Shown piece after piece: positions 7,124 through 60,498 of a DNA stretch of 64,000 nucleotides. The position numbers were made by a program, and so were the translations under genes. The stretch's first letter is position 1, and each line of letters opens with the position of its first letter. The stretch lies in the IMG/VR virus record IMGVR_UViG_3300043446_002182. One strand, given 5' to 3'. The DNA comes from an uncultured virus (IMG/VR IMGVR_UViG_3300043446_002182). Lineage: Duplodnaviria > Heunggongvirae > Uroviricota > Caudoviricetes. The notes beneath the pieces were generated by a model. That model searched no databases. It saw nothing but the letters and a program-made list of their open reading frames with translations, and was not told the DNA's origin.

Positions 7124-7702
7124 ATGACGCCGGAAGAGTTCATCTTCGAGTATCTTGAGGCCGACCAAGATACGGGTGCTGGGTCGTATGAGAAGATGAT
7201 TTCCGAAATTCAAACTCTTGATTGGGAAAAAGTCAAGCCTCACATTCTGAAACTTCGTTACTTCTACTTTCTGAAGACATCCTACTGGATGATTATCTCG
7301 TCAGAAGTAAAGCGGAGAAGTAAGTGGAAGTGCAATTCCTGTTTCGGTAGAGTTGGTCTTCAAGTTCACCATGAAACCGAGGGCGATGCCAACCACGGGC
7401 AAGAACATCTTCTTTTGCTGGGCGGTCTTATTCGTGGGCTTCGTTGTGTTTGTGAAAAGTGTCATGAAAAAGAACACGGCCCTGCAATCAAAGTGAAAGA
7501 TGCAGAAAAGAAACGGCAGAAGAATCTTCGCAAAGAAAACATTCTCAACCAACTTCCTTATTACCCCGGTCGGATTCCCGAAGAAAGCATCAGCGGTTCA
7601 TCGTTTGTGTTGACTCGAAAGTTATTGGAAGAACTTGAGCACGAACGGAAAATCATGATAGAGCGGAAGCTTTATGATGGTTGGAAAATTCATCGTCTAT
7701 AA
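7124..7702 (+). CDS. HNH-family endonuclease-like protein
   Basis: CNSC...LQVHH...CVCEKCHEKEH motif. Confidence 0.7.
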   Translation: MTPEEFIFEYLEADQDTGAGSYEKMISEIQTLDWEKVKPHILKLRYFYFLKTSYWMIISSEVKRRSKWKCNSCFGRVGLQVHHETEGDANHGQEHLLLLGGLIRGLRCVCEKCHEKEHGPAIKVKDAEKKRQKNLRKENILNQLPYYPGRIPEESISGSSFVLTRKLLEELEHERKIMIERKLYDGWKIHRL

Positions 7703-7922: not shown

Positions 7923-8351
7923 ATGACAAAAGAAGAACGGTCGGCTTACAACAAGGCATATAACGAAAAGAACAAAGAGAAAATTCTCCTTCGCAAAAAA
8001 CAGTTCTATCAATCCAACAAAAAACGTCTTACCAAAGTTCAAACTGAATATAATAAAGCACACTATGCTGAAATGCGGGAATATCAGAGAACATACTACC
8101 GACTAAAATGCTATGGTATAGACAAAGCAACATTCGATAAAATGTTGCATGATCAACAGGGAAAATGTGTTATATGTGAAGTATTGTTTGATTTGAATAG
8201 TAAAGTGACCAGTCCACATGTTGACCATAACCATGCCACAGGCAAAGTAAGGTCGCTTCTCTGCCACAAATGTAATTTGGGATTGGGGAACTTTTTAGAG
8301 AGACCAGATTCTCTCATCAAAGCGGCGGAATACCTTAAGTATCATGCTTGA
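7923..8351 (+). CDS. Endonuclease VII-like HNH homing endonuclease
   Basis: CVIC...HVDHNHATGKVRSLLCHKCNLGLG; basic helical N-terminal repeats. Confidence 0.85.
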   Translation: MTKEERSAYNKAYNEKNKEKILLRKKQFYQSNKKRLTKVQTEYNKAHYAEMREYQRTYYRLKCYGIDKATFDKMLHDQQGKCVICEVLFDLNSKVTSPHVDHNHATGKVRSLLCHKCNLGLGNFLERPDSLIKAAEYLKYHA

Positions 8352-8382: not shown

Positions 8383-8390
8383 TATTTATA
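8383..8390 (+). promoter_or_regulatory. Putative late promoter TATTTATA upstream of sheath (representative copy)
   Basis: The motif recurs upstream of about 20 transcription units on both strands. Confidence 0.7.
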
Positions 8391-8429: not shown

Positions 8430-11400
8430 ATGCCAATCACTGAAGGTGGAAGATTTACCCCCAATGACCGCATCGTAAGCCCGGGTGTATTCACCCGTGA
8501 AAATGACCTATCTGGTATCGCTCAAGGCGTTGCCGACATCGGAGGCGTGGTATTAGCCCCGTTTGCAAAAGGTCCGGGTTTCTCACCAACACTTGTTCGC
8601 AGTGTTTCAGAACTTGAAAGCAAGTTCGGAACTGCTGACGGAACTCTCTATGGTCCATACACGGCCAAGCAATACATTCAAGAAAAAGGATTTGTCACGG
8701 TCTGTCGTGTCGGTGCTTTGACTGGTTATCACCAGAAGTATCCTTGGGTCATTTGGGCAGAAAAGGGAACGTGGATTCGTCAACAAGACTCAGCATCAAT
8801 TGTTGCTGGTTCTTCTACGTTGAGCCAAACTGGTTTGACTTGGGTAACTGCTGGTCAACAGACCAGTGCTTCCGTAAGTTCCTACACTGGTTCTGTGACT
8901 TTGGTCAGCCAATCCGTCACCCTTGGTCTCACGGGCAGCACTCTTTACAACAACACAACTGTTGTTGGCACGATTAGCGGTAAGTTCAGCTTCACTGGTT
9001 CATTGAACCTTTCGACTGCTTCTGCAACCTCGGCTTCTATCTTGGAAGCAATCTTCGATGCAGGATATTTCACTGGCTCACTTGCTGGTGCAACTTTCTT
9101 GAGCAGCCAAACCCCATTCGATGCCGCATTCTTGACGAATGCATGGCACTTGACTGGTGTTAGCCAATCCGTTGATTCTTGCAACAATCTCACCTTGAAT
9201 GTTTCGGGTGATATTTCGGGAAGCATCGGTAACTACAACGGCAACTTCGTCAGTGGTTCTGGCACATTCGACCCTTGCACGGGAACGTGGACAATGGGTG
9301 GAACGGAATACAAGATTCTCGCCGTTCTTGCCGACACGCAAAACGCAACCATCAATTCTGATTTGGAAGCACCCGGCTTCTATGGTTCAACCCAATCCTA
9401 TGCTCCTTCGCCTTCTGGAAGCGATTCTGTTGGTGTGGCATTCGACTTGGCTTTGAGCGCATCTGAAAATGGTGGCTACGGCATTTACAACTTCTCACTT
9501 GACCCAAACAGCGTCAAGTATATCACCAACGTATTCGGTGCTGATGCACAAGCTGGCGACCCTGACACGTATGTTGCAGGAACCAAGCGTGAAGCAGCAT
9601 ACCTTTACAAAGTGTTTGAAGACGACATTGCAACGGTCTCTGGAAATTCTTCGCAATGGAGAATCAACGGAACGGCAATGCCATCAGGCTCATGGACTGG
9701 TGAACCTCTCAAGTTTGTTGACCAATGGTCATTGGACTTGCTGAATGGTGACTCGGCCTATGGTCTTACCAACGCTTACACTCCTTGGGTTGTTTCCCAA
9801 AAGGTCTCTCCTTGGAATGGTGGAACTTCGACTCGTTTCCCATTGTTCCGTCTCTTGACGTTGAGCGATGGCACGAACCAGAATACCTCGTTCAAGATTG
9901 AAATCTCCCAAGTCAAGTTGGCTGGCACGGTTGCTGGCAGCGATTGGGGAACTTTCACCCTCACGGTGCGTGATTACAGCGACACCGACAAGAAGCCAAA
10001 GATTTTGGAGCAGTTCAACAACTGTAACCTCGACCCTGACTCTCCAAACTTCGTGGCTCGCAAAATCGGCGACCGCTACAACTACATCCGCTTCGATGGT
10101 AAAATCATCGAATTTGGAACGTATGACAATCTCAGCAAGTATATTCGTGTTGAAATGTCATCGAATCCTTGGCCAACCACGGCTGTTCCTTACGGCTTCC
10201 AAGCCTACACGGTTCCAGTCAACGGCGCACTTGGTCAGCAATGCAATCCAATTGCATACACCAAGGCATCGGTCTATGGATTGTTCCCCGGCAAGTATCC
10301 ATCGGGTATTGACTTCGGTGGTGCTCCTGCGGGTGCAGATAGCCAACTCACCGCATTGTATCCAACCTCTTCGGCTGGTGTCGAACATTACAGAGACAAT
10401 CTGCAATACTTCGCCCCTGTGCCAGATGGTGCTACGGTGGGTAACAACACACTCTTTGCTCTTGATGAAGAAATCACTGCAAATGGTATCGGAACTGGTT
10501 CTTACATCAGCGCAAGCAACGTAGTGCCAGCCATCTATGACGCAGCAAATGAAACCACCTACATCAAGATGCGTAAGTTCGTCTTCGGATTCCAAGGTGG
10601 ATTTGATGGTCAATCGCCAGCTATTCCGCTGAATCTCGGTGCAGACATCACTGCGGGCAACACCCAAGGTTTGAACTGCGCTAACAGCACGACAGCAGGT
10701 TCGATTGCATACAATCAATGTATTGGCGCACTCGGAAATGCAGACGAGTTCGACATCAACTTGATTGTAACTCCGGGTATCATCTACTCGTTGCACAGCT
10801 ACGTCACCAACACGGTGGTTGAAATGTGCGAACGCCGTGGTGATTGCTTCTACATCGCCGACCTCTACCAAGATGATGGCAACCCAACGTCGGGTCAAAT
10901 TGATGAAGTCGTAAGTTTGGCTTCTGAGTTCGACACGTCCTACGCTGGAACTTACTATCCTTGGATTAAGATTAAGGATACAAACACGAACAAAATCGTG
11001 ACTGTTCCTCCTTCGGTAGTGATGCCAGCAGTTTACGCAGCCAACGACCGTGTGGCTGGTGAATGGTGGGCAGTAGCAGGTTTGAACCGTGGTGGTATTC
11101 CAGTGGCAACACAAGTCACCGACCGCACGACCCACGTTGAGCGTGATACGCTCTATGAAGGCCGTGTCAACCCAATCGCAGCATTCCCCGGTCAGGGTAT
11201 CTGTGTGTGGGGTCAGAAGACCTTGCAAGTCGAGTCATCGGCTCTTGACCGCATCAACGTCCGTCGTTTGTTGATTGAAATCAAGAAGTTCTTCGCTTCG
11301 ACTGCACGCTACTTGGTGTTCGAGCAAAACACGGCTGCAACACGCAACAAGTTCTTGGCAATCGTCAACCCTTACTTGGAGAGCGTGCAGCAACGCAGTG

Positions 11401-11567
11401 GTTTGTATGCCTTCCAAGTCGTAATGGATGACAGCAACAACACGCCTGACTTGGTTGACCGTAACATCCTGTATGGTCAAATCTACTTGAAGCCAACCAA
11501 GGCCGCTGAATTCATCGTCTTGGACTTCAACGTTCTGCCAACGGGCGCAACGTTCCCAACGGCCTAA
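8430..11567 (+). CDS. Tail sheath protein (T4 gp18-like)
   Basis: SPGVFTRENDLS N-terminus; YYPW, PPS, W.AVAGLNRG, RVNPI, WGQKTL, RINVRRL, FEQN, KPTKAAEFI motifs. Confidence 0.95.
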   Translation: MPITEGGRFTPNDRIVSPGVFTRENDLSGIAQGVADIGGVVLAPFAKGPGFSPTLVRSVSELESKFGTADGTLYGPYTAKQYIQEKGFVTVCRVGALTGYHQKYPWVIWAEKGTWIRQQDSASIVAGSSTLSQTGLTWVTAGQQTSASVSSYTGSVTLVSQSVTLGLTGSTLYNNTTVVGTISGKFSFTGSLNLSTASATSASILEAIFDAGYFTGSLAGATFLSSQTPFDAAFLTNAWHLTGVSQSVDSCNNLTLNVSGDISGSIGNYNGNFVSGSGTFDPCTGTWTMGGTEYKILAVLADTQNATINSDLEAPGFYGSTQSYAPSPSGSDSVGVAFDLALSASENGGYGIYNFSLDPNSVKYITNVFGADAQAGDPDTYVAGTKREAAYLYKVFEDDIATVSGNSSQWRINGTAMPSGSWTGEPLKFVDQWSLDLLNGDSAYGLTNAYTPWVVSQKVSPWNGGTSTRFPLFRLLTLSDGTNQNTSFKIEISQVKLAGTVAGSDWGTFTLTVRDYSDTDKKPKILEQFNNCNLDPDSPNFVARKIGDRYNYIRFDGKIIEFGTYDNLSKYIRVEMSSNPWPTTAVPYGFQAYTVPVNGALGQQCNPIAYTKASVYGLFPGKYPSGIDFGGAPAGADSQLTALYPTSSAGVEHYRDNLQYFAPVPDGATVGNNTLFALDEEITANGIGTGSYISASNVVPAIYDAANETTYIKMRKFVFGFQGGFDGQSPAIPLNLGADITAGNTQGLNCANSTTAGSIAYNQCIGALGNADEFDINLIVTPGIIYSLHSYVTNTVVEMCERRGDCFYIADLYQDDGNPTSGQIDEVVSLASEFDTSYAGTYYPWIKIKDTNTNKIVTVPPSVVMPAVYAANDRVAGEWWAVAGLNRGGIPVATQVTDRTTHVERDTLYEGRVNPIAAFPGQGICVWGQKTLQVESSALDRINVRRLLIEIKKFFASTARYLVFEQNTAATRNKFLAIVNPYLESVQQRSGLYAFQVVMDDSNNTPDLVDRNILYGQIYLKPTKAAEFIVLDFNVLPTGATFPTA

Positions 11568-11582
11568 ACGGTATAATAATTC

Positions 11583-11612
11583 AAAAGGGGCGGAAAATTC
11601 CGCCCCTTTTTT
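11583..11612. terminator. Bidirectional intrinsic terminator
   Basis: aaaaggggcggaa-aa-ttccgcccctttttt between convergent genes. Confidence 0.85.
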
Positions 11613-12040
11613 TATTGCACTTGCAACTTTAACTTATTCAGGATTTCTCTAAGGGTATATTTTTGTTCGAGTTCATTCTGGTCGAAAGTGTTTTCGAGAA
11701 GGTTTATCGCTGAAAGTAATTCTGTTTTATGGGCATGTATTGAATTTTCGGTAACTGAATTCCATTCAAGATTGTCTGCTTTATTATCCAGTTTGTTTCG
11801 ATTTTTATGATTGACAACAGACTTTTTTGAAGGGTTTGGTATAAATGCCAATGCTACTAATCGGTTTACACGATGCGTAGATGGTATTCCTTGTTTGTAT
11901 AAATGAACTACGGCATACCCTGTTTTCACTATACCTGCCTTAAGTATTCTTTTGGACTTTATTCTCCTAATACGTCCTAAATTTGATACTTCGTATATGG
12001 AGTCATATCCATCAATTGCTTTCCATTTTTCTTGTCTCAT
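11612..12040 (-). CDS. NUMOD4-HNH homing endonuclease
   Basis: EKWKAIDGY...YEVSNLGRIR (NUMOD4); RLVALAFIPNP...VNHKNRNKLDNKADNLEW (HNH). Start placed at ATG 12040, after the TATTTAT motif. Confidence 0.9.
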   Translation of the reverse strand: MRQEKWKAIDGYDSIYEVSNLGRIRRIKSKRILKAGIVKTGYAVVHLYKQGIPSTHRVNRLVALAFIPNPSKKSVVNHKNRNKLDNKADNLEWNSVTENSIHAHKTELLSAINLLENTFDQNELEQKYTLREILNKLKLQVQ

Positions 12041-12131
12041 TGCAATAAATAGGCGTCTCAAACGGAAGGACGCCCTTCTTCTTTTATAGAATGTTGACGG
12101 GAAGGTGGTTTTATGCCATATTTATTTACGT

Positions 12132-14537
12132 ATGGACAAAGAATACTTGCAGAACATCGCTGGCTCTCCCCATGTTAATGAAGGTCTCGGAGACCGCATC
12201 TTGGCTCGTGGCTCATCTGGCCTCCAAAGAGTGTCTGCCATGACCGGTGGAAACATCGAAGACCTTAACTACAAAAAGGTCAGCACCCTCTTCAACGGAT
12301 TCATCAAAAAGCTTACTGGCATCCTTAAGGATTTCGCCGAAGGTCCAAACAGCGTTGCCAATCGTCTTGAGCAAATGCGTCCAGCAATTACCCCTGCTCA
12401 GAAAGCGTCCATCCAGCAACTTCGTGATTTGTATTCAACTCTTGTTCCAACTGGTTTTCAACAGCATCAGCTTGGACAAAGCGTGCTCAATCCTCGTCAA
12501 CAAAATCGTTCGGCATTGACTGAAATGTTGAAGGAAGGTATTTTTTCCCGTGACTTGTCATTGAACAAAGCTTTGCAGTCAAACAATCCCGCCACGATTC
12601 TTTCGGCCTACACCAACGAAATCAAAAAGGCATATGATTCTTTCATTCGTGATGCCATGAAAGTTACAGGTGCTCCCCGTGATTACGTTAAACGAGTGGT
12701 TGGTAATTTTGATAAGAAATGGGCACCAATTTTGAACAAGGTGGAACAAACGATAAATCAACCAGCAGTTCCACCAGTCATTCCTCCGTCTGCCCCGCCA
12801 GCCGATGCAAGTGCAGTTCCTCCTGTAATCCCAGCAGCAGGCCAAGCTGCTCCAACGGCACAAACAGCAATTCAGGCCAAACCAGCCGCTTCAAGTGAAG
12901 AGGATTTGGTTGTCATCATTACCAAAGTGGCTGACATCGTTATCGAAGCAGTCAAGGGCGATATGGAACGTGCTGCTCCATATTTCAAACCCGGAAGTGG
13001 TGGAAATGAATATGAAGATTTGCCTCAAGATTGGGATGCGCCTGCGGTAACAAAGGAAGCCGAAGACCCCGAGTCAGACGGCCCAAGCGATGCTGAAAAA
13101 GCAGCTATGAAAGATGCTCCCGAAGGCGAGCAAAACGAATTTCTTTACAACTTCCACTCATTGTATCGTAAGCAACGTCACTTTGCTATCGAAGTTCCAC
13201 AGACTAAGCAATTCACTTACACAAGTCGTGACAAAAAGAGCCTGAACAAGATTGAAGTTGTGTGGGCAAACAATAGTCACGAAAACACCATCTATGCCAA
13301 GCACACACCTGTAAAGGTTGAAAAAGATGCTGAAACGCAAGATGACGTTTTCACGCCTACAGGTAAGTCGGGCGATGTTGCCATTTTCAAGTTTTGGGAT
13401 GACCAAGTGAATCCTCGAACCGCCGAATCCAAGAAGTTCACCATTCAGACTTTGTTTGACCAAGCCAACAAGAACATCAAAGATATTGTTCGTAAAGTAG
13501 AGAAGAAGAATCCCGGTTTGATTATGGAAATGAACAAACGAGAGAAGCCACTCCAACGTGCTCTCTATGCTACGGTCAGCCGTAAGCGCATGGAATTCAA
13601 ACCTAAGAAGGCAGTTTCCTTACAGTTGAAAGATGGAGAAGTTTTCCTCAAAGGCAAGCAGGTTAGCCAGACCGAATTGCGTCAGAAGTTGTTCAGTAGC
13701 AACATCGTTGAAGCAAACAACTGGATTGGGGCTTTGGATGATATTGATTACTTTGCCTCTCATCCAGAAATGATTGAGACCCGAAATAAGGCCGAAGCAA
13801 TTGTGCAATTGGCAAATGCAAATCATTTGCAAGCTGATGCTGCCGAAGCAGTGGGCAATGTAACAAAGACGATGAAGCCAGAAGAAATGCAAGTCAACAA
13901 TATCATCACGTTGGCGAAGCAATATCTTTTGAAAAAGAAAGATGCAATGTCGGCAGAAGCCAAAGACGCTGTGTTATCCTTGGTGAAACTTGGGTATAAA
14001 GAACCCGATGCACAAAACAAAGTCAAGCAGGCAATTGTTCAAATTGGGGACGATAAAACTGCCGAGGAATATACCAAGACCGCATTGGCTGGGCCAAAAG
14101 CAACAACCGCCACAGGAAATACGTCGAACGTTCCAGTATCAACTCCTGCCCCAAGCGCACCAGTATCAGCACCCGTGAGTGCTCCTGTTTCTGCACCTGT
14201 AAGTTCGCCAGTGAGTGCTCCTGTTTCTGCACCTGTAAGCGCACCAGTATCAAAAGAAAAGCCACAGCCCGAAAAGGCAAAAGAAAAATCTACAGTGACT
14301 ATTTCAGACGATGGGGCAATCTCTGGCATTGACCCAAAGTCGGGTCAGGTAAAAAGCTGGAAAGTGGGACAAATGATTCCAAAAACAATTGCGTCAGCAA
14401 TCATGAACGACCCCGACTTGAAGAAGAAATTTTCCGACTTGATGGCAAAGCGTGCTGCTGCGAAAGCAGCTAAGACAGGAAACACTGACTTGAAGGAAGA
14501 GTTTGTCAATCCCTTCAACCCTTCCAACTTTCTCTAA
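12132..14537 (+). CDS. Large putative head/internal protein with RuvA C-terminal-like domain and SAPV repeats
   Basis: Late motif 6 nt upstream; VNEG/LKEG/LKEE sites; DAVLSLVKLGYKEPDA...AEEYTKTAL. Confidence 0.6.
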   Translation: MDKEYLQNIAGSPHVNEGLGDRILARGSSGLQRVSAMTGGNIEDLNYKKVSTLFNGFIKKLTGILKDFAEGPNSVANRLEQMRPAITPAQKASIQQLRDLYSTLVPTGFQQHQLGQSVLNPRQQNRSALTEMLKEGIFSRDLSLNKALQSNNPATILSAYTNEIKKAYDSFIRDAMKVTGAPRDYVKRVVGNFDKKWAPILNKVEQTINQPAVPPVIPPSAPPADASAVPPVIPAAGQAAPTAQTAIQAKPAASSEEDLVVIITKVADIVIEAVKGDMERAAPYFKPGSGGNEYEDLPQDWDAPAVTKEAEDPESDGPSDAEKAAMKDAPEGEQNEFLYNFHSLYRKQRHFAIEVPQTKQFTYTSRDKKSLNKIEVVWANNSHENTIYAKHTPVKVEKDAETQDDVFTPTGKSGDVAIFKFWDDQVNPRTAESKKFTIQTLFDQANKNIKDIVRKVEKKNPGLIMEMNKREKPLQRALYATVSRKRMEFKPKKAVSLQLKDGEVFLKGKQVSQTELRQKLFSSNIVEANNWIGALDDIDYFASHPEMIETRNKAEAIVQLANANHLQADAAEAVGNVTKTMKPEEMQVNNIITLAKQYLLKKKDAMSAEAKDAVLSLVKLGYKEPDAQNKVKQAIVQIGDDKTAEEYTKTALAGPKATTATGNTSNVPVSTPAPSAPVSAPVSAPVSAPVSSPVSAPVSAPVSAPVSKEKPQPEKAKEKSTVTISDDGAISGIDPKSGQVKSWKVGQMIPKTIASAIMNDPDLKKKFSDLMAKRAAAKAAKTGNTDLKEEFVNPFNPSNFL
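14154..14252 (+). repeat. 12-nt tandem repeats encoding (SAPV)x8
   Basis: gtgagtgctcctgtttctgcacctgtaag is duplicated exactly at about 14175 and 14211. Confidence 0.9.
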
Positions 14538-14639: not shown

Positions 14640-15215
14640 ATGCAAGCCGTTACAGAAAATAAAAATAGTGACTCCATCCTGTATTTAGACATGGATAGGG
14701 TTCTGGTTGATTTTGACAAGTCATATGAACAATTGACGGGTGGTCTTAGCCTCCGTGCTTATTCAAAAAAAGTCGGAGACCGTAAGGCTCATGACATTTT
14801 TTTAGAGGCTGGTACAAAGTATTGGGCTGACATGGATTGGATTCAAGGTGGTCGGGAACTTCTGGCAGCAGCAGAAAACCTTTTTTCAAACGTCTGGATT
14901 CTGTCTTCCGCAGGCACTACAAGTCCCGAACTGGCCAAAACCGTTATTGCTGGCAAGCAGGAATGGCTTAAGAGACACGTTCCTTCAATTCCCATGTCCA
15001 AGGTGCTTATCGTCCTCGGACGCCACAGGAAGAAGGAATACGCTGCAAAGAACGCTATTCTGGTAGATGACATGCCCGACACCATCGAAAGTTGGAACAA
15101 AAAGGGTGGTGATGGCATCCTTCACAGCCATTTGACATATAAAAACTCGATTGAAGCGTTGGAAGATTTGGCCAAACCAATCAAGTTAAGTGAGCTTGCG
15201 AAGCGAAATCACTGA
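14640..15215 (+). CDS. HAD-superfamily 5'(3')-deoxyribonucleotidase-like protein
   Basis: LYLDMDRVLVDF, ILSS, K..WL, ILVDD...W...GG.GILH motifs. Confidence 0.85.
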   Translation: MQAVTENKNSDSILYLDMDRVLVDFDKSYEQLTGGLSLRAYSKKVGDRKAHDIFLEAGTKYWADMDWIQGGRELLAAAENLFSNVWILSSAGTTSPELAKTVIAGKQEWLKRHVPSIPMSKVLIVLGRHRKKEYAAKNAILVDDMPDTIESWNKKGGDGILHSHLTYKNSIEALEDLAKPIKLSELAKRNH

Positions 15216-15229
15216 TATTTATAAGATGC

Positions 15230-18200
15230 ATGGACACCGACCTTAAAAAAATCATAGACGAGACAATCGAACAATTCTTCGAGAATGCTCCTATCAAGAT
15301 GATTGAAAAAGGTGTTCGGGAAGAAACGTTTGACGTTTGTCCTCATTGCAAGAAAGAAATCTACGAGAAACACGAATACACCGAAGACGGTGGAAAAACG
15401 TGGCGTCATAGTGATTGCAAAGGCTTGATTCGTCGCCCGCCGCTTGACCCAGCATCTATCCCCGACTGGCTTCGTCCATATATGGATAACAGCCTCAACG
15501 AGTATTTCGGCAGCGACCCGTCTAAGATTGGAATTGAGAGTGGTGAGAAAAAGTATTCCGAGCAAGAGCCGGGTGGACAAATGGCCGCAGTAAATTGCAA
15601 CGAAACTGCGTTCCGTGTTTACAACGAAACACTTTGCCCCGCTCTGTGGGACGAACAACAACACCTTGACCCCGAGGTTCGTTTGAATCTTCTCCGCATG
15701 GCACAAGACTTCTACGAGAAGACCAAATTCACCGCTCCAATTCTGGATGTCTATTTGATGGGTTCGATTGCCAACTACAATTGGACGCCTGATAGTGACG
15801 CCGATGTTCATGTCATCATTGATTTTACCCAACTTCAAATGCCGAACGAAACGGCTTCCAAAGTTGCCAAGTCCGCTGGGGCACAATGGAATCTCGAACA
15901 CAATGCGACCGTAAAAGGCCACAAGGTCGAAATCAACATTCAAAGTGTCAAAGCCGAAAAACCACACGTCACGGGAATTTATTCCTTGATGAAAGACGCA
16001 TGGATTCGTAAGCCAACAAAGATGAATGTGCAAGTGAACAAACCATTGATTCAAGTTCACTACACTGAAATCAAGAAATTTGTCGAGAGTGCTATTCAGT
16101 CTGGCGACCGTGAAAAGATGAAGACTGCAAAGGACTATCTGGACGATTATCGCCAGCATGGTTTGGACACCGCAGGAGAGTTGAGCACGCAGAACATTGT
16201 TTACAAGATTCTTCGTGCCAAGGGACTTATCAAGACTTTGAAGGATGCTATCATCGTTGCCTACGATAAGGAAATGTCAGTGGACGAGGCGGAAGCCCCA
16301 ACCATGACCAAGAAAGATTACATCGGAAGTATTATTGATGGAGAAGTGCGTGGCGAACCCGTCCCAGCAGGTAAGGTGAAGTTCTACATGCATAACGATT
16401 TTCCCGGGTTGATTTCAGGAATGAATTCGACCAACTGGCGGTATAATGCTGAGAAGAATAGGGTGTTGTGGAACACGCAGCCCGAAGAAGAAAGCAAATC
16501 CAAAGTGACCGACTTTTTGACAAAGCGTGGCATTGTGAACCCGATTCACAAAAACATGTATAACTTTGAAGAAGTCACACAGGCAGACATCAAAGACCGC
16601 CACCCTCACCCCTTTGCTCCCCAAAAGTTGTCACCCGACAATGAACTCGTTCCCGATTTGGAAATGATGACGCTTGACAACCTGAAATCGTTGATGAAGA
16701 AGGCTGGACGTGAATGGCGTTATGCTCGTGCTCATGAAGATTCTGAAGGCTGTAAACGAGCACTTGAAAAGTCGAAGCTTTTCCATGATGAAATCAAACG
16801 TCGTCTTGCTTACATCAATAAGCCCGTGGCTGAAATGGCTAACATTTCGTTGCAAGGAAAACAGGCATTTGCCAATGACAACCCGTTGAAAAATGCTACG
16901 GTTGAAGATGTGAGCGGGAATGTTGTGCTTTTCAGGTCAGATACGGGTGGGTTTTTCGCACCCGGGTTTACGTTGGTGTATTTCATGGATTCCGATGAAT
17001 CGGCACAAGCCATGAAAGATGGGAAGATTCCATATTTGATGGTTCCTCGTGGCACGTTTCATTCAGGTGGAAATCCAATCACCGACATCTGGAAGAAAAA
17101 GTTTCAGAAGCCCGGAACGGAACATATTCTCGGCGTTGTCGAAGGTAATTCCAATGAGAATGAGATTTACATTGACATGATTACGGTTCGCCCCGGCTGG
17201 CAGCGTAACAGCATTGCCCGTAAGATGATTGAGATTCTGAAAAAGAATTTCCCAAAGGCCAAGCTTGAAACTTCAAGCACAACCGACAAAGGTGCAAAGT
17301 TCTTCAAGGCTGTAAATGAATCCGTTGGCTATGAACGTGACCCAAACTATCGGTCATCTGCTGATTTTTTGGAACGACGGGACAGGCAAATGTGTGAGAT
17401 TGCTACTTTTCTAAAAGAAAACCCCGGAACAACCCCTATTCCTTGGAAAACCATTCCCGCATCACTATTGAAGAAAACGTGGCTTATATTCGGGAAACGA
17501 AACATAGTTCATGAGAATGCGATTGATAAGATTGCAGACCAGATATTGACGAACATTGCACGTCTCTATGTGTCCAATGAGTTTGCAGGCCACAGCACCA
17601 ACTATCACATGCCCGAAGAAGTGTTGGAGAATTGCGGTATTGAGTTTTCGGAGAAGGAATGGGATAAAAATTGTTGGCGGTTCGAGAACATTTCCGACTA
17701 TGGAATGAAACCGTTACAAAAAATCTACCACCAAATCTTCGAGGCCGACACGCCCGAGGAAAAGCTTTACGCATGTGACCGAGCATTAAACGTTGTTCAT
17801 CAACGCAGTGACTTAGCATCAATTTTTGTTGAGGGTGGGACTGCTACTCTGAATGCTGTTGCTGAACAAGGTGGCTATGATTCTGGATATTCTTACGGCG
17901 ATGTCAACCGAATGATGCAGAAAGTCAATGAGAGAATGGTCCATTCTTTTGAAACTGATTATGGTCGTGGTCCAACGTATGTTGAAATCTTTCAGAACCC
18001 AACTACAAAAGAACTTCGGGAATGTAAGCCCCACTATGAAATTGGAGCATTATTGACAGATAAAGACATCTATGTATGGAATCGAGAAAAAGCATACCAC
18101 AACAATGTTAAGACGCAATTGAAGTTGCCAGAAGCTTTGTCATTGATGCTTATTCCTGATAACAGCAACATTAACCGAATGGATATTCTTGTGACTGATG

Positions 18201-18526
18201 CCGTTAAAGGAACAAAGTGGGATAACAATCCACAGACCGAAAATTTCATCCGCAATCATCCATTCTTTCGTGGCAAACAAATTGACCAAATAATGTATTG
18301 GAACGAAGACATTGTAGGTGACTGGTCCGCTCTAAAAGATGAAGTCGCTGAAGGTTATGGTGCAGGAGTTCCCGAAGATGATAGGTTGCATATTCCAGAC
18401 CACCGCTGGCAGATTCGCAGTAAAGATGCTCCAAAGACTCCAAAGATGCCATCTGAACAATTGACTGAGACTGAAAAAGAGGCAATCAATGAACTCGTTG
18501 ACCAAGTAATTGCTGGGATGTTATGA
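15230..18526 (+). CDS. Multi-domain (polyvalent) protein: Zn ribbon, Pol-beta-type nucleotidyltransferase, GNAT-like domain and unknown domains
   Basis: CPHC..HSDC; LMGSIANYNWTPDSDADVHVIID; IYIDMITVRPGWQRNSIARKMI...TDKGAKFF. Confidence 0.75.
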   Translation: MDTDLKKIIDETIEQFFENAPIKMIEKGVREETFDVCPHCKKEIYEKHEYTEDGGKTWRHSDCKGLIRRPPLDPASIPDWLRPYMDNSLNEYFGSDPSKIGIESGEKKYSEQEPGGQMAAVNCNETAFRVYNETLCPALWDEQQHLDPEVRLNLLRMAQDFYEKTKFTAPILDVYLMGSIANYNWTPDSDADVHVIIDFTQLQMPNETASKVAKSAGAQWNLEHNATVKGHKVEINIQSVKAEKPHVTGIYSLMKDAWIRKPTKMNVQVNKPLIQVHYTEIKKFVESAIQSGDREKMKTAKDYLDDYRQHGLDTAGELSTQNIVYKILRAKGLIKTLKDAIIVAYDKEMSVDEAEAPTMTKKDYIGSIIDGEVRGEPVPAGKVKFYMHNDFPGLISGMNSTNWRYNAEKNRVLWNTQPEEESKSKVTDFLTKRGIVNPIHKNMYNFEEVTQADIKDRHPHPFAPQKLSPDNELVPDLEMMTLDNLKSLMKKAGREWRYARAHEDSEGCKRALEKSKLFHDEIKRRLAYINKPVAEMANISLQGKQAFANDNPLKNATVEDVSGNVVLFRSDTGGFFAPGFTLVYFMDSDESAQAMKDGKIPYLMVPRGTFHSGGNPITDIWKKKFQKPGTEHILGVVEGNSNENEIYIDMITVRPGWQRNSIARKMIEILKKNFPKAKLETSSTTDKGAKFFKAVNESVGYERDPNYRSSADFLERRDRQMCEIATFLKENPGTTPIPWKTIPASLLKKTWLIFGKRNIVHENAIDKIADQILTNIARLYVSNEFAGHSTNYHMPEEVLENCGIEFSEKEWDKNCWRFENISDYGMKPLQKIYHQIFEADTPEEKLYACDRALNVVHQRSDLASIFVEGGTATLNAVAEQGGYDSGYSYGDVNRMMQKVNERMVHSFETDYGRGPTYVEIFQNPTTKELRECKPHYEIGALLTDKDIYVWNREKAYHNNVKTQLKLPEALSLMLIPDNSNINRMDILVTDAVKGTKWDNNPQTENFIRNHPFFRGKQIDQIMYWNEDIVGDWSALKDEVAEGYGAGVPEDDRLHIPDHRWQIRSKDAPKTPKMPSEQLTETEKEAINELVDQVIAGML

Positions 18527-19197: not shown

Positions 19198-19258
19198 TTT
19201 TTTCTTCATTGGCATATATTTATAACCATAGACGAGAACCACAAGGAAAAAATAACCT

Positions 19259-19750
19259 ATGGCAGACTTACTGACAAACAACGAAATGTTTTATACGATT
19301 TGGGAACCCAAGACCAAGAATCGCTTCTTGATGTATGTGGATGGCATCCCAACGTATCTAATCCGCAAGACCGACCGTCCAAAGTGGACACAGGAACGCA
19401 AGACGATTGATTACATCAACTTGCAGTGGTTCTATAAGGGTAAGACAACTTGGCAAGAAATCACGCTTGAGTTGTTCGACCCAATCGTTCCTTCTGGTGC
19501 TCAGACCGTATTCGAGTGGTTCCGTCTATCCCACGAATCCGTGACTGGCCGTGATGGTTATCAAGACTTTTACAAGAAGGAAGTTACCATTGACGTTCTT
19601 GGCCCTGTCGGTGACAAGGTTGAAGAATGGACTCTCAAGGGTGCTTTCCCAACCTCATTCGATGGTGGTGAACTTAGTTGGGAAAATGGAGGCGATCCTG
19701 TTCTTATTACGATGAATCTGTCCTACGACTACGCCATCCTCCAATACTGA
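19259..19750 (+). CDS. Tail tube protein (T4 gp19-like)
   Basis: EPKTKNRF, WQEITLELFDPI, EW.LKGAFP, LSYDYA motifs; late motif at 19217. Confidence 0.9.
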   Translation: MADLLTNNEMFYTIWEPKTKNRFLMYVDGIPTYLIRKTDRPKWTQERKTIDYINLQWFYKGKTTWQEITLELFDPIVPSGAQTVFEWFRLSHESVTGRDGYQDFYKKEVTIDVLGPVGDKVEEWTLKGAFPTSFDGGELSWENGGDPVLITMNLSYDYAILQY

Positions 19751-20477: not shown

Positions 20478-20780
20478 ATGTGGACATACAATGAAGCAAA
20501 GCCCTTCGCCGAAAAAATTGGCGGGAAGATTGTCGGGTCAGTAAAGACCAAGGGCAAGTCCGACCACGATTTAGACATCTTGGTTCCAGAATATAGCCAA
20601 AAGGTTGGGAACATTGTTTCAAGTTTGGGGTTCACATATATGGGCAGTCAAGTTGTTTCTCCCAAAGAAATCAAACGAAGCAGAAAATTTGGTGGAAAGG
20701 CCGATTTTTGGCTTAGAAACAGACGGTTTGAAAACCTGATTGACCATAGGGTTATCGAGGTTTGGGTGGTAGAAAAATAA
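20478..20780 (+). CDS. Minimal nucleotidyltransferase-like protein
   Basis: IVGSV...SDHDLDILV (GS plus DxD) and C-terminal IEVW strand; 100 aa. Confidence 0.65.
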   Translation: MWTYNEAKPFAEKIGGKIVGSVKTKGKSDHDLDILVPEYSQKVGNIVSSLGFTYMGSQVVSPKEIKRSRKFGGKADFWLRNRRFENLIDHRVIEVWVVEK

Positions 20781-20813
20781 GCTTTAGACCCCCGAAACGA
20801 TATTTATATGCGT

Positions 20814-22080: not shown

Positions 22081-22608
22081 TTAAAATTTATTGTGTTGCA
22101 CTGCGGTTTCATAGAACATCTTTAATGCTTCATACATTCCCGAAACTGTTTCAACTCCTTTGAAGGAATTGATTCCCCAACAACAAAGAACAACATTTGT
22201 TGGAGTATATCCTTCGGTAGAGTTTATACGGTCGAGTGACATTGCAAATAGATTTCTTTCTTTTTCATCTTGTTGTCGAATTTTCATCGTCACTCCGGTA
22301 TAAAAGCATTTTCCTTTTTGTTCTTGATATTTTTTACGAACATCTTTAACTGTTAGAGAGAATGGAATCTTAACCCCTTTCTTTTTCCGTTGCATAGCCG
22401 ATGATATTAAGTCATAGAATCTTTTTGTCAATAAATCTTCTGGAGATCGACTTTCTCTTAAATCTTTGCGTGTTTGAACTGCTCTTGTTTTTCCACATGA
22501 CTTACACCACGATAGATAAACTTGGCGAACTTTGTTGAAGTAGAACTCATCAATAGGTTTTGTTGTCTGACATTTGGGACATGGTTTAGTTTGACGAATA
22601 TATTTCAT
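22081..22608 (-). CDS. HNH-like homing endonuclease
   Basis: CPKC...F...CKSC; CFYTG...SLDRINSTEGY..TNVVLCC..IN..K; late motif just upstream. Confidence 0.8.
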   Translation of the reverse strand: MKYIRQTKPCPKCQTTKPIDEFYFNKVRQVYLSWCKSCGKTRAVQTRKDLRESRSPEDLLTKRFYDLISSAMQRKKKGVKIPFSLTVKDVRKKYQEQKGKCFYTGVTMKIRQQDEKERNLFAMSLDRINSTEGYTPTNVVLCCWGINSFKGVETVSGMYEALKMFYETAVQHNKF

Positions 22609-22686
22609 GGTTATAAATATATTTTTAGTAAGAAAAAGTGAAAAAAAAGCGAATGGCGGTCTATGTATTGAAAAGGTCACAACTAT

Positions 22687-24310: not shown

Positions 24311-24356
24311 AGTTGGATTATAGCACAAATCTCAAGGGTTGCAACTATTTATAATC

Positions 24357-33287: not shown

Positions 33288-33333
33288 AATATGTTCTTTT
33301 GCCGATCCTTTGGCATATTTATATTTCAAAGGT

Positions 33334-34104
33334 ATGGCTAACATTGTTGATAGAGTATTTGCCGAGGTTTGTTTGGACGAACGCATCAAAGACGGCATTT
33401 TCCGATTAGAAGAAGAAGAGCACATGAATGCTCTTCGTGATTATTTCCTGAAGAGAGGAATTACGCAGGAGGCCGCTGTTGCTGTAACCAATCGCATGGT
33501 TGAAGGACGCTTCCCAGAACGTCAAGCCTACAATAAGGATGGCATTCTAGTCACATTCCCAACCCCACAGCACAAAGCAAAGGCTATTGCTCGGGGAACA
33601 CATTTTGAAAAGAATCCGGCTCCGCAGAATTCTACTCCACCGAAAGAAGAGCCAAAGCGTCCAGATTTGAAGCCGACCGATAAGGCTGATGATTTGCCGC
33701 CCAAAGAGCCTGCACAAGCCCCAGCCCCAAAGGAAGAGCCTGCTGGCGGCGTTGTGAACAAGGTTCAGCAAGGTGGAGTGGAGTTGGCAGTCGAACCGCC
33801 CCGTGGTGCTGAAAAGCCAGAATCCGCTCCCGTGCCCCAAGCACCCCAAGAGCCTCAAGCACCAAGAAGGCCTGAGAGAATTGCGGCAGAGAAAGAAGTC
33901 ATCAAACAAATTTTGGCGACTGATGATACGGCATTGAATCCCGTTGACCCAGCATTGAGTGAGAACAGCAATCCTGAGTTGGAGAAGAACATCCGAGAAA
34001 TGCGGGAGAAGATTGTGAAAGTGGTGGACAGCCTTCCATATCCTGAACTGAAAGAACTATACAACCGAGTGTTCATCAAATACGTTTACGGAGTGGGTAA
34101 ATAA
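33334..34104 (+). CDS. Hypothetical late protein with Pro/Glu-rich linker
   Basis: TATTTATA at 33316; ATG 33334. Confidence 0.7.
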   Translation: MANIVDRVFAEVCLDERIKDGIFRLEEEEHMNALRDYFLKRGITQEAAVAVTNRMVEGRFPERQAYNKDGILVTFPTPQHKAKAIARGTHFEKNPAPQNSTPPKEEPKRPDLKPTDKADDLPPKEPAQAPAPKEEPAGGVVNKVQQGGVELAVEPPRGAEKPESAPVPQAPQEPQAPRRPERIAAEKEVIKQILATDDTALNPVDPALSENSNPELEKNIREMREKIVKVVDSLPYPELKELYNRVFIKYVYGVGK

Positions 34105-34567: not shown

Positions 34568-35089
34568 ATGAAATCAAAAAATCAGAGAAGAGTTATTAAC
34601 GTTCCCAAAGAACAGTTTGATACAATCAAAGCGTATTGTGATGCACGAACTTTGGATATGCCTAAATGGGTAGTAAAAAATTCCCTTGAGAAAATCCCCA
34701 ACATCAATCAAGAAGATGATTTTTTATCTTTACTTGAAGATGACTCATCTATCAAGTTCAAAACATATGAAAACGTAGAACCAAGGTTTAGGTTTACAAA
34801 AGAGTTTATTTGTAATGTGTTATTTCCTGATACCGACCATGCGGCATGGAGTGTGGAAAAAATGCCCGAATATAAATGTTTTCATATAAAAGAAATAGTT
34901 ACATCTTCTCCGTTTTCTAAGCCGACTACTTATTATGGTGTAGGAGATTATGCATTTGTTGCAATACAGAATGCATATAAAGATTTGTGTGATAGTATTG
35001 AGTGGTGTATTGAGTTCGACCATAAGACAAAATTACCATATTGGGTGTATAGGCTTTTTACCAATGATAAATCATATTATGAGACGTAA
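34568..35089 (+). CDS. Hypothetical protein with possible N-terminal ribbon-helix-helix
   Basis: RRVINVPKEQFDTIKAYC...MPKWV strand-helix-helix pattern; AT-rich. Confidence 0.55.
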   Translation: MKSKNQRRVINVPKEQFDTIKAYCDARTLDMPKWVVKNSLEKIPNINQEDDFLSLLEDDSSIKFKTYENVEPRFRFTKEFICNVLFPDTDHAAWSVEKMPEYKCFHIKEIVTSSPFSKPTTYYGVGDYAFVAIQNAYKDLCDSIEWCIEFDHKTKLPYWVYRLFTNDKSYYET

Positions 35090-35534
35090 AAGACAAGAAT
35101 ATGCTCGTCAATACTATCTGAAGCATAAAGAGAAATTTCAGAAAAGAAGTGCAGAGTATTATTCAAAACATAAGGATGAGTATAAAATAAAATTTCAGGA
35201 TTACAACCGAGCATACTATCGGAAGAATAAAGAACGAATAAATCGGAATCGTAAGCGAGACAAGTCATACATGTCTAACTTCCATCTGCGAAGAAAATAT
35301 GGGATGAGTGAACATGACTATATCGAGATGTTTAGATTACAGACTGGCTGTTGTGCAATTTGCGGCAAGGAGGCGTTAAAATATAAGCGTAAACTTGCAG
35401 TTGACCATAATCATACAACCGGAAAAATTCGAGGACTGTTATGCGTAAAATGCAACGGTGGACTCGGATGTTTTGAAGAAAATCCCGTGTTGTTTGACAA
35501 GGCCAAAGAGTATCTGTCCAAATTTTCCACTTAA
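35079..35534 (+). CDS. Endonuclease VII-like HNH homing endonuclease
   Basis: CAICG...LAVDHNHTTGKIRGLLCVKCNGGLG. Confidence 0.85.
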   Translation: MRRKRQEYARQYYLKHKEKFQKRSAEYYSKHKDEYKIKFQDYNRAYYRKNKERINRNRKRDKSYMSNFHLRRKYGMSEHDYIEMFRLQTGCCAICGKEALKYKRKLAVDHNHTTGKIRGLLCVKCNGGLGCFEENPVLFDKAKEYLSKFST

Positions 35535-39973: not shown

Positions 39974-40270
39974 ATGAAAAAGTATAAACTGCTTCGTTTC
40001 GGAAAATCTTACATCAACCGCACAGGGGATTTTGTGGTATCATTGATGTATGGTGACAAAAAACATGGTTATGTTTTTGCTGCCCAACACGCTAATCCTA
40101 CCGTATGGCTCGGTACGGTGCAAACACTAAGCCGTGTTGTGCCGAATGATGGTAACTGGATTGATATAACTCCTGAACAGTTCAATGTAGCGTCCGCATT
40201 GATGATTTCCGGGATGACCATGCAACTTACGGCTAATACTACAGTTGTTTCACCATTTTCAAACATATGA
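39974..40270 (+). CDS. Hypothetical protein
   Basis: 98-aa ORF tightly packed in the operon. Confidence 0.6.
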   Translation: MKKYKLLRFGKSYINRTGDFVVSLMYGDKKHGYVFAAQHANPTVWLGTVQTLSRVVPNDGNWIDITPEQFNVASALMISGMTMQLTANTTVVSPFSNI

Positions 40271-44274: not shown

Positions 44275-44312
44275 CTATATTTATAACCATAACACAATGT
44301 CTGTGGATACCT

Positions 44313-45022: not shown

Positions 45023-45081
45023 AATCACCTTTTCCGCAACCAGAGCCATATTTATAAGTAGCGAAATATAAATACACTGCC

Positions 45082-60494: not shown

Positions 60495-60498
60495 AACT

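Follow-up and report, generated by a model that had tools for sequence, protein, structure and literature searches.

An uncultured T4-like jumbo myovirus of ~350 kb encodes a modular polyprotein that is probably loaded into the capsid, where the prohead protease would split it into enzymes for injection. Its gene (P0001) lies in a 64,000-nucleotide stretch of DNA, the window, and its product would be a variant that joins two themes, those of the phage polyvalent proteins and of the T4 internal proteins. The open reading frame is as the earlier note on this DNA had described it, a plus-strand frame of 1098 codons that begins with ATG. Its parts, with the features that flank it, are as follows.

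14640..15215, + strand: HAD 5'(3')-deoxyribonucleotidase-like gene, 191 aa, upstream of the polyprotein gene and without leader
15216..15223, + strand: TATTTATA motif, 6 nt 5' of the polyprotein ATG
15230..18526, + strand: modular polyprotein gene, 1098 aa, ATG start, stop codon included
15230..15262, + strand: leader, residues 1-11 (MDTDLKKIIDE), amphipathic, with I-D-E at its end; putative capsid-targeting signal and first site of cleavage
15263..15604, + strand: Zn ribbon (CPHC...HSDC) with disordered tail, residues 12-125, ending CNE125
15605..16288, + strand: pol-beta-type nucleotidyltransferase (NTase) module, residues 126-353, ending YDKEMSVDE353; stand-alone forms exist
16289..16573, + strand: small beta-rich module, residues 354-448, ending FEE448; no function assigned
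16574..16834, + strand: helical-hairpin module (VTQxDIK...YINxPVxE535), residues 449-535, found in most homologues
16835..17320, + strand: GNAT-like module, residues 536-697, with an atypical loop (QRNSIA), ending VNE697; stand-alone leader-bearing forms exist
17321..17932, + strand: all-alpha, highly conserved module, residues 698-901, ending VNE901; no function assigned
17933..18352, + strand: alpha/beta module, residues 902-1041, ending VAE1041; no function assigned
18353..18523, + strand: GYGAGVPE...RWQIRSKDAPKTPKM peptide module, residues 1042-1098, disordered with a terminal helix
18523..19197, + strand: downstream gene, 224 aa, overlapping the polyprotein stop (ATGA); N-terminus MITLKHLVCE

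The sheath gene of the tail (8430-11567) lies on one side of the polyprotein gene and the tube gene (19259-19750) on the other, the late or virion context typical of polyvalent proteins, and the synteny is the same in a relative, G007. The nearest record, G001, is a 51-kb fragment that overlaps the window. TATTTATA and its complement together occur 15 times where 1.1 would be expected; the motif also stands 5' of the sheath and tube genes and may be a common late-promoter-like element. Because the polyprotein gene lies between these two genes and shares their upstream motif, it would be expressed together with the structural genes.

The joints between modules carry the main evidence for cleavage. 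Across 89 long homologues of the 1098-aa protein, homology breaks exactly on E125, E353, E448, E535, E697, E901 and E1041. Internal ends of BLAST HSPs cluster at q353/354 (23), q535 (34), q694-700 (25) and q894-905 (17), and HSP starts cluster at q446-448 (12) and q1036-1041 (41). Whatever module precedes or follows, the joint has the consensus [V/I/L]-x-E↓: P1 is Glu in 71/77 sequences at site 353, 58/70 at 448, 78/79 at 535, 19/23 at 901 and 66/68 at 1041, and P3 is V, I, L, M or F. Where a foreign module lies upstream of the joint, the full motif is kept in 18/22, 10/10, 4/4 and 35/52 cases, the last with Glu in 51/52. The joint pattern exceeds chance, the background of [VILFMA]-x-E in these proteins being 0.024 per position. 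In one homologue, P0004, identity over residues 1-535 is 97%, and other modules follow exactly after E535. A point against the reading of the joints as protease cuts is the site before the NTase in P0001 itself, where P3 is Cys (CNE).

Six of the nine borders proposed in the earlier note coincide with true module borders: VDE351-353, FEE446-448, VAE533-535, VNE695-697, VNE899-901 and VAE1039-1041. VRE29-31 fell away, as it is not conserved (Glu in 2/7 homologues), and LNE89-91 is doubtful, with Glu in 5/17. The last, listed as LTE/INE, is doubtful too: INE1086-1088 is often conserved but lies within a predicted helix. Two sites had been missed, namely IDE9-11, which closes the N-terminal leader and keeps [ILV]-x-E in 8/8 homologues, and CNE123-125, the joint before the NTase, with Glu in 43/44. 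The earlier note had asked whether homologous domains occur alone or shuffled in other phages with the same borders; they are shuffled among the 89 long homologues and stand alone in short proteins, and the [V/I/L]-x-E borders are alike.

The note had also held that domain borders should coincide with the Glu sites, and the predicted structure is in keeping with this. In an AlphaFold2 model (mean pLDDT 76; 197/1098 residues below 50), the segments with pLDDT below 50 (83-127, 350-360, 532-555, 700-704, 884-901 and 1026-1078) fall at, or no more than 3 residues from, 6/7 internal joints. FEE448 has only a mild pLDDT dip (block mean 74), which counts against the match. As a control, we considered module 698-901 in the giant polyvalent proteins of other lineages, where its borders have no hydrophobic-x-E at a fixed place; comparison of these sequences therefore indicates that the joints are lineage-specific and no property of the fold.

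This control bears on whether the protein is cut at all. It could instead work whole, as one multidomain polyvalent enzyme whose joints are preferred linkers or footprints of cassette recombination, a reading that we regard as unlikely. Behind many unrelated upstream modules, the amino acids at P3 and P1 are kept, with P2 and the codon context differing; the same fold lacks the joints in other lineages; the motif is the known site of a protease family found in the clade; and split and fused gene forms are interchangeable. What speaks for an uncut enzyme is that classical polyvalent proteins, as far as the cited sections of PMC5512222 go, are thought to act whole or to be cut by their own MPTase, and that each module family ends in a conserved tail of its own (YDKEMTVxE and YINxPVxE, for instance). 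Stand-alone NTases retain this tail, and because they too end in [VIL]-x-E, a few residues before the stop, part of the motif could be structural.

A protease of the required type is seen in the relative only; neither the window nor two overlapping fragments hold a protease gene. G007 (353,772 bp, CheckV 100% complete) is syntenic, with a tube protein that is 75% identical, and encodes a Peptidase_S77 protein (79.7 bits) whose match to 5JBL, the structure of T4 gp21, has E 8.5e-12. The gp23-like capsid protein of G007 reads LIEE↓S ~25 residues before its conserved core, a position that we take to correspond to the cleavage position of T4 gp23. T4 gp21 cleaves at L/I-X-E, according to the section of PMC9026906 cited here. 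We found no S77 protease in six fragmentary or four partial relatives, whose low completeness (10-49%) makes this absence uninformative. Fold searches with P0001, in which three modules' fold stayed unassigned, gave no HExxH-type match.

The modules of the polyprotein also exist as single genes behind a 10-residue leader, MIKLKxLLxE. In single-module homologues of 173-245 aa, MIKLKxLLxE, MKYxDYYxxLLNE or MKFKEYILQE stands directly before the module, and leaders of this class occur in at least 37/186 family proteins. At the sequence level, MIKLKxLLxE resembles the T4 capsid-targeting sequence, given as MKTYQEFIAE in the cited part of bioRxiv 10.1101/2021.01.19.427310; P0001 itself begins with a short leader of the T4 type, ending L/I-x-E (MDTDLKKIIDE). 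In G007 the strict leader opens 9/528 ORF N-termini and follows 0/1765 internal Met residues. Six of these genes lie in tandem just 5' of the sheath gene and two just 3' of the capsid gene, and their cargoes include ART-PolyVal, a CCA-adding tRNA nucleotidyltransferase with an HD domain and a 2H/Acb1-like phosphoesterase. The gene downstream of the polyprotein bears a leader in 10 other loci; in the window its 224-aa product is a candidate co-packaged protein, because its N-terminus belongs to the same leader class. Against leader-based head loading, 51 homologues begin directly with the NTase and have no leader.

Taken with the ART-PolyVal domains of homologues, the shuffled modules, their borders, the relative's protease and the leaders lend support to the earlier note's proposal that proteolysis may release several effectors. 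By analogy with the T4 internal proteins, the leader MDTDLKKIIDE would carry the precursor inside the prohead's scaffolding core. A serine protease of the gp21 family would then cut after Glu in [V/I/L]-x-E at the sites indicated by comparison, E11, E125, E353, E448, E535, E697, E901 and E1041. The pieces so released would be a Zn-ribbon piece, the pol-beta nucleotidyltransferase and a GNAT-like acyltransferase, along with pieces 354-448, 698-901 and 902-1041, to which no function is assigned, the hairpin 449-535 and the C-terminal peptide. Enzyme-sized pieces would stay inside the head and be delivered along with the DNA to act early in the cell as effectors; the small modules that stay constant, 449-535 and 1042-1098, may resemble propeptides, serving in assembly or targeting and then being lost. 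With the protease separating the modules in any case, fusion, splitting and swapping at the joints would be free to occur, and the homologues show all three.

Packaging and cleavage could also serve the head itself, if the pieces were mainly structural or scaffold components, akin to inner-body proteins or propeptides, instead of effectors aimed at the host. In giant phages many head proteins undergo several cuts, and some of these proteins form an inner body (cited part of PMC9026906); our model shows a simple helical hairpin for 449-535 and disorder for 1042-1098. We consider this quite unlikely, given that the catalytic residues of the NTase are invariant, that leader-bearing genes of G007 encode enzymes (ART, CCA-adding enzyme and 2H phosphoesterase) and that ART-PolyVal occurs in homologues. 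This last domain, a hallmark of polyvalent proteins, scores above cut-off in 5/49 scanned homologues; in P0001 itself Pfam finds none of the hallmark domains, which besides ART-PolyVal include MuF and the LPDs.

The Zn ribbon named in the earlier note is present (C37-x2-C40 ... H60-x2-C63) and kept in G007, where, as in at least 8 other loci, the piece is a separate upstream ORF. The NTase with its G-S...D-x-D motif likewise held up: the motif and a third carboxylate, the hallmarks of the pol-beta superfamily (hG[GS]...[DE]h[DE]h for the motif), are invariant in 24 aligned sequences (G53, S54, D65, D67 and E109 in module numbering). Pfam matches are weak (NTP_transf_2, residues 166-200, E 1.4e-3, 19.4 bits against a cut-off of 21), and residues 131-350 match a phage family, phrog_36119, at E 2e-38. 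A PDB profile search gave E 0.027-0.13, Foldseek with the full-length model matched AAD(9), AadA and CD-NTases at E 5e-3 to 0.1, and VIA matched minimal NTases (Z 7.0 and 6.9) and TENT5 (Z 6.6). These matches point to no one subfamily. Helical hairpins dominated the fold-search results for the full-length model. Megablast of 12-22 kb against cultured phages gave no match, and tblastn against cultured or named phages matched the NTase module alone.

The neighbors of the NTase raise a different possibility, in which the protein belongs to a cytoplasmic set for nucleotide metabolism or nucleic-acid modification, working with the adjacent nucleotidase, and the leader has another role. In 46 loci, some of them with a stand-alone NTase, the nucleotidase gene lies directly 5' of the NTase gene, a pairing that suggests cytoplasmic nucleotide metabolism by the NTase and counts against head loading. 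In cultured phages, moreover, the stand-alone NTase is found among early or metabolic genes: that of Maribacter phage Molly adjoins a NUDIX gene, and those of Cr30 and S-CRM01 lie near tRNA and replication genes. Yet the nucleotidase lacks a leader, and the location between sheath and tube genes, the leader, the protease-type joints and the leader-bearing neighbors all point to the head, so that we judge a cytoplasmic set very unlikely.

For the GNAT-like domain, also named in the earlier note, a profile matches RibT, a GNAT protein, at E 1.4e-3, and the Pfam family Acetyltransf_10 (residues 631-703) reaches 22.9 bits, just short of its gathering threshold of 23.6. Foldseek gave local matches to 2atr (probability 1.00) and 5xxr (0.97) over 61-69 columns only. 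The acetyl-CoA loop does read QRNSIA, as the note stated; in 10 sequences it follows [QK]-R-N-x-I-[AGN], with R and N invariant, and departs from Q/R-x-x-G-x-G/A. Because the loop is atypical and the Pfam score is under cut-off, catalysis by this module appears doubtful. Beside the NTase and the GNAT-like module there are at least three others, and the protein thus combines disparate domains as polyvalent proteins do.

Module 698-901 is found in 820 representative clusters and is widespread in giant polyvalent proteins, being common to giant ART-PolyVal and LPD23 proteins; ART-PolyVal is present in 8/16 of the proteins of 2-4.7 thousand aa that contain the module. The VIA matches of this module to HEPN proteins, to HI0074 at Z 5.1 and to an AMPylated HEPN toxin at Z 4.6, lie below the tool's stated noise level, and its conserved motif is H-Q-R-N-D, compared with R-x4-6-H in HEPN. 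PDB profile searches with modules 449-535, 698-901 and 1042-1098 returned nothing below E 0.06. A two-module model of 698-1041 (pLDDT 83) had no PDB match (best Foldseek E 0.1, best VIA Z 5.7) and in BFVD matched only uncharacterised viral proteins; in the ESM Atlas, module 902-1041 matched unnamed viral clusters with scores of at most 0.76.

[quoted passage not shown] According to the same excerpts, an S77 serine protease cleaves them after Glu, as the genes suggest for P0001; mutually unrelated cargoes share only the leader, as in the P0001 clade; and the genes cluster in variable loci, with the cargo injected with the DNA, as it would be here. Each T4 protein, however, is cut once, beside the leader, whereas P0001 and its homologues have up to 8 cargo modules and, at each joint, a predicted site of cleavage. 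The leader consensus, MIKLKxLLxE or MDxDLKKIIxE, differs from that of T4; V or I prevails at P3; enzymes of 10-25 kDa make up the cargo, in contrast to the small basic inhibitors of T4; and the phage is ~2x the size of T4.

Polyvalent proteins, as the cited sections of PMC5512222 portray them, share with P0001 a single polypeptide built of disparate domains, a setting among late or structural genes and extreme shuffling of architectures. Autoprocessing by an MPTase domain has been proposed for classical members in those sections, whereas Pfam finds no internal peptidase family in P0001 at E<=1 and the joints match the head protease; a further difference is that the pol-beta NTase is the constant module of a phage family. 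In the giant phages phiKZ, 201phi2-1 and SPN3US, a protease related to gp21 cleaves single proteins several times, each time behind the Glu of a three-residue motif, and ejection proteins lose propeptides (excerpts of PMC9026906, PMC5694885, PMC10052503 and PMC7411985). The motif in those phiKZ-type phages is S/A-x-E, unlike the [V/I/L]-x-E joints of this T4-type phage, and the excerpts do not describe such cuts as freeing enzyme modules that shuffle independently and are found, too, as single genes with a leader. We found no paper that describes prohead-protease sites as the joints of polyvalent proteins, although the supplements of PMC5512222, outside the scope of our search, may list related architectures or an LPD that equals 698-901.

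If capsid loading and cleavage by the prohead protease are correct, P0001 joins T4-type leader and gp21 loading with shuffled polyvalent effectors, two themes that are separate in the literature, and the head protease, instead of the proposed self-cleaving peptidase, releases the modules. The free fusion, splitting and swapping of these genes would thereby be explained. Leader and joints would also give a sequence rule that predicts the packaged and injected proteins of uncultured jumbo phages, and hundreds of metagenomic 'hypothetical' modules, 698-901 for example, would become candidate early counter-defense or host-takeover enzymes.

A possible extension, to which we give somewhat less than an even chance, is that the ~350-kb T4-like jumbo-phage clade uses a two-part grammar, a leader 'zip code' and a 'cut here' joint, to load arbitrary enzymes, with the 449-535 hairpin and the GYGAGIPE peptide as discardable internal targeting or assembly modules for leaderless precursors. 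The zip code would tentatively be MIKLKxLLxE or MDxDLKKIIxE and the joint [V/I/L]-x-E, and the cargo may perhaps come either as single genes or as beads-on-a-string polyproteins. Such a grammar would make the injected arsenal of uncultured giant phages readable straight from sequence; among its enzymes would be those of the NTase, GNAT-like, ART, CCA-adding and 2H kinds, beside several domains with fold unassigned.

As a general targeting tag, the GYGAGIPE module was rejected, since it has a single copy in the window and a single one in G007, in this gene alone. The GYGAGVPE...RWQIRSKDAPKTPKM module is present in one copy per genome and stands nearly always directly after a cut site.

The 1,098-aa protein is a mosaic. 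A search of 5.8 billion proteins returned 89 homologues of 603–1459 aa, and BLAST against them shows its segments reappearing in other orders and combinations. The internal ends of homology stack on single residues (23 at residue 353/354, 34 at 535, 25 at 694–700 and 17 at 894–905), as do the starts (12 at 446–448 and 41 at 1036–1041), and these break positions are the glutamates of VDE353, FEE448, VAE535, VNE697, VNE901 and VAE1041. One homologue, P0004, is 97% identical to the protein through E535 and then continues into other modules, a recent module swap placed exactly at a joint. An earlier note had described a polyprotein with domains parted by x-x-E sites; its border list included these six, but also VRE31, which is unconserved (2/7), LNE91, which is weak (5/17), and INE1088, which is frequent in homologues yet falls within a terminal helix of the predicted structure.

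At the mapped joints, the residue just before the break is glutamate in 71/77 (353), 58/70 (448), 78/79 (535), 19/23 (901) and 66/68 (1041) homologue positions, and the residue two earlier is V, I, L, M or F; at site 697 glutamate occupies 18/33, but BLAST alignments there frequently drift into a different module's YINxPVxE tail, which is similar. With an unrelated module in front of the joint, the complete motif is still found in 18/22, 10/10, 4/4 and 35/52 cases (glutamate alone in 51/52 of the last set), against a background of 0.024 per position in the same proteins. Absent from the earlier list were CNE125, immediately before the nucleotidyltransferase (NTase) module, which keeps its glutamate in 43/44 homologues, mostly as I/L/V/A-x-E, and IDE11, which closes an N-terminal leader in 8/8.

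For the full-length protein, AlphaFold2 (53 aligned sequences, mean pLDDT 76) predicts confident domains parted by stretches of pLDDT<50 (residues 83–127, 350–360, 532–555, 700–704, 884–901 and 1026–1078). Six of the seven internal joints lie in such stretches, although just 197 of the 1,098 residues fall below 50, and at E448 the pLDDT drops less (block mean 74). The refuting outcome named in the earlier note, domain borders that miss the glutamate sites, is thus not what the model shows. The Zn ribbon proposed earlier is present and conserved (CPHC...HSDC, residues 37–63). The NTase module (126–353) is predicted to be a pol-beta fold with its catalytic set intact, bearing out the earlier GS..DxD reading: weak in Pfam, it matches phrog_36119 at E 2e-38, and none of 24 aligned sequences departs from G-S...D-x-D or from a third acidic residue. 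Searches for similar folds return a weak and heterogeneous set (aminoglycoside adenylyltransferases, CD-NTases, minimal NTases and TENT5), and the module occurs as a stand-alone gene in the cultured phages Maribacter Molly, Synechococcus S-CRM01 and Caulobacter Cr30, in Lak phages and in metagenomic relatives. Residues 449–535 are modeled as a helical hairpin. Module 536–697 had been called GNAT-like with an unusual acetyl-CoA loop; its Pfam score falls just under the cut-off, but its profile matches the GNAT RibT (E 1.4e-3), and the loop is indeed atypical. Module 698–901 is all-alpha, with 68% mean column identity and invariant H, R, D and E-G-G; a fold search gave no PDB match, the weak HEPN-like rows lying under the tool's stated noise level. 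Fold searches that barely covered the alpha/beta module 902–1041 gave no match for it. Module 1042–1098 is a conserved peptide (GYGAGIPE..RWQIRSKDAPKTPKM), disordered in the model, that stands nearly always just after a cut site and, in each genome where it was found, in this gene alone.

A profile of module 698–901 retrieved 820 representative clusters at E<=1e-3 (640 at 1e-10) among 1.84 billion proteins, including proteins of 2,000–5,678 aa. ART-PolyVal occurs in 8/16 scanned giants bearing the module and LPD23 in 1/16, which marks them as classical polyvalent proteins. Beside the module in these other lineages of giants we found no hydrophobic-x-E at a fixed place, whereas in the T4-like clade it does sit at a fixed place; the joints belong to the lineage, not to the fold. 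The flanks of this domain in giants of other lineages (P0204, P0210, P0217, P0246 and others) often hold an F/Y-M-P motif (FMPAPG, GFMP, FMPTE, FMPR), perhaps another kind of joint or cut site, specific to those lineages.

A second search, limited to proteins <603 aa, gave 96 relatives of residues 536–1098, many of them single modules (GNAT-like, 173–193 aa; 698–901-type, 200–245 aa) and some of these on contigs of up to 319 kb. Modules shuffled in the long homologues occur singly in short proteins, with the same [V/I/L]-x-E borders. In at least eight loci an ORF of its own, placed before an NTase-first ORF, carries the Zn-ribbon module and leader; in G007, a complete syntenic relative, the gene is likewise split into a Zn-ribbon ORF and an NTase polyprotein. 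The fused and split forms can therefore stand in for one another, as expected if a protease parts the modules anyway.

Single-module proteins start with a 10–13-residue leader closing in [IL]-x-E right before the module (slash, module start), such as MIKLKSLINE/, MIKLKTLLNE/, MIRLKQLLRE/, MKFKEYILQE/ and MKYKDYYNHLLNE/. The start of the 1,098-aa protein, MDTDLKKIIDE/T, is a variant that every Zn-ribbon-first homologue carries; the gene after it starts MITLKHLVCE, and a leader is present on the gene right after the polyprotein gene in 10 other loci. Across the G007 genome the strict leader occurs at 9/528 ORF starts versus 0/1765 internal methionines. Six of the nine genes form a tandem run just 5' of the sheath gene, two sit just 3' of the capsid gene, and the ninth is at another place. 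Among the proteins behind the leader are a 2H/Acb1-like phosphoesterase, an ART-PolyVal ADP-ribosyltransferase and a CCA-adding tRNA nucleotidyltransferase that also has an HD domain; one more has a ParB-C/EndoV-like region, and the other five gave no match. The T4 capsid-targeting sequence is MKTYQEFIAE, which gp21 removes and which causes any protein fused to it to be packaged (bioRxiv 10.1101/2021.01.19.427310; PMC9958956), and this leader is all that T-even internal proteins have in common (PMC12373910). Fifty-one NTase-first homologues have no leader; speculatively, 449–535, 1042–1098 or the separately encoded Zn-ribbon protein might load them. A 256–264-aa ORF (window 33310–34104) starts MANIVDRVFAE and a 222-aa G007 ORF (205191–205859) starts MESLFDYILSE; both may be additional members of the leader-bearing set, and neither gave a family match.

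The window comes from the genome of an uncultured myovirus and carries a T4-like gene set, including baseplate parts, a gp32-like SSB, UvsX, a DnaB/gp41-like helicase, clamp-loader subunits and ribonucleotide reductase. IMG/VR fragments overlapping it measure 39–51 kb and are rated 12–15% complete, which implies a genome of ~350 kb. The polyprotein gene lies between the sheath and tube genes, and a 224-aa ORF 3' of it has a start that overlaps its stop.

Genes around the polyprotein gene
8430–11567, tail sheath gene, T4-like
12105–14537, 810-aa ORF between the sheath and nucleotidase genes, 5' of the polyprotein gene
14640–15215, HAD-type 5'(3')-deoxyribonucleotidase-like gene, before the polyprotein gene
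15230–18526, + strand, polyprotein gene, intact ORF, 1098 aa
19259–19750, tail tube gene, T4-like

No prohead protease gene was found in the window. G007, a 353,772-bp IMG/VR record with a completeness rating of 100%, keeps the window's gene order here (sheath, 810-aa ORF homologue, nucleotidase, Zn-ribbon ORF, NTase polyprotein, tube, Hsp20, 307-aa ORF homologue), with tube proteins 75% identical. It encodes a Peptidase_S77 protein (79.7 bits), whose match to the T4 gp21 prohead protease structure 5JBL has E 8.5e-12, and a gp23-family capsid protein with LIEE/S ~25 residues ahead of the conserved core, roughly at the T4 gp23 cut position. This protease (291273–291899; 1402–2028, − strand, in locus L069) starts MNDINKKLLIE, which resembles a leader and closes in L-I-E, a form that fits the self-cleavage near the N-terminus described for T4 gp21. 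T4 gp21 cleaves after Glu in L/I-X-E, and for the diverged proteases of phiKZ-type giants the site is S/A-X-E (PMC9026906). A second gp23-family match in G007 (284836–285099; L074) has two in-frame TGA codons and may be either a pseudogene or a vertex-protein gene that an intron or homing element interrupts.

We propose that the polyprotein would be made late and taken by its leader into the prohead core, where the S77 protease would cut it at eight [V/I/L]-x-E sites, and that the enzyme-sized pieces would stay in the head to be ejected with the DNA. The comparison shows the conserved sites, the modules' behaviour, the leader class and a protease in a relative; from these, cleavage, packaging, injection and enzymatic targets are inferred. 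Head-packaged injected enzymes and shuffled polyvalent proteins are established concepts (PMC5512222; PMC9503650), as are the T4 leader-plus-gp21 system and multiple cuts in giant-phage head proteins. Within the published literature searched, we found no polyvalent family with a prohead-protease site at every module joint and modules alternating between polyprotein-embedded and leader-bearing single-gene forms. The 2017 polyvalent-protein paper proposes an internal MPTase, in contrast to the head protease proposed here, and its text names the pol-beta NTase for conjugative elements only (PMC5512222).

In 46 retrieved loci, some of them with a stand-alone 232–235-aa NTase, a deoxyribonucleotidase-like gene of this HAD type stands immediately 5' of the NTase gene; this constant pairing suggests a functional link, which the packaging model leaves unexplained. 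The 810-aa ORF has a (PVSA)n repeat close to its C-terminus and no PHROG match, and GSPHVNE/G in its N-terminal region pairs with GSPYINE/A of its G007 homologue, which has 547 aa; a further protease site may lie here, and the ORF may encode a further head protein. A 100-aa ORF (20478–20780), which shares 85% identity with its counterparts in the related loci L004 and L013, resembles a minimal nucleotidyltransferase (GS...DxD: GSVKTKGKSDHDLDILV). Many homing-nuclease genes are scattered among the core genes, and in G007 HNH/EndoVII-type genes likewise adjoin the capsid, protease and polyprotein genes. The sugar-nucleotide cluster would serve a pathway directed at either DNA or a surface glycan. 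The octamer TATAAATA, also the sequence of T4 late promoters, and its complement occur 15 times in the window, where 1.1 would be expected. In most of these copies the coding strand carries TATTTATA, 0–40 nt 5' of + strand start codons, among them those of the sheath, polyprotein and tube genes, making the octamer a candidate shared (perhaps late) promoter or initiation-region motif.

Further features of the window
7124–7702, 7923–8351, 11612–12061, 22081–22680, 34950–35534, 40267–40620, 53814–54272 and 62878–63801, HNH/EndoVII-type homing-endonuclease genes (at least eight)
54269–62881, − strand, sugar-nucleotide cluster: four nucleotide-sugar epimerase/dehydratase-like genes, an aminotransferase and a methyltransferase
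8383–8390, 15216–15223, 19217–19224, 20801–20808, 24346–24353, 33316–33323, 44278–44285 and 45049–45056, octamer copies, among others
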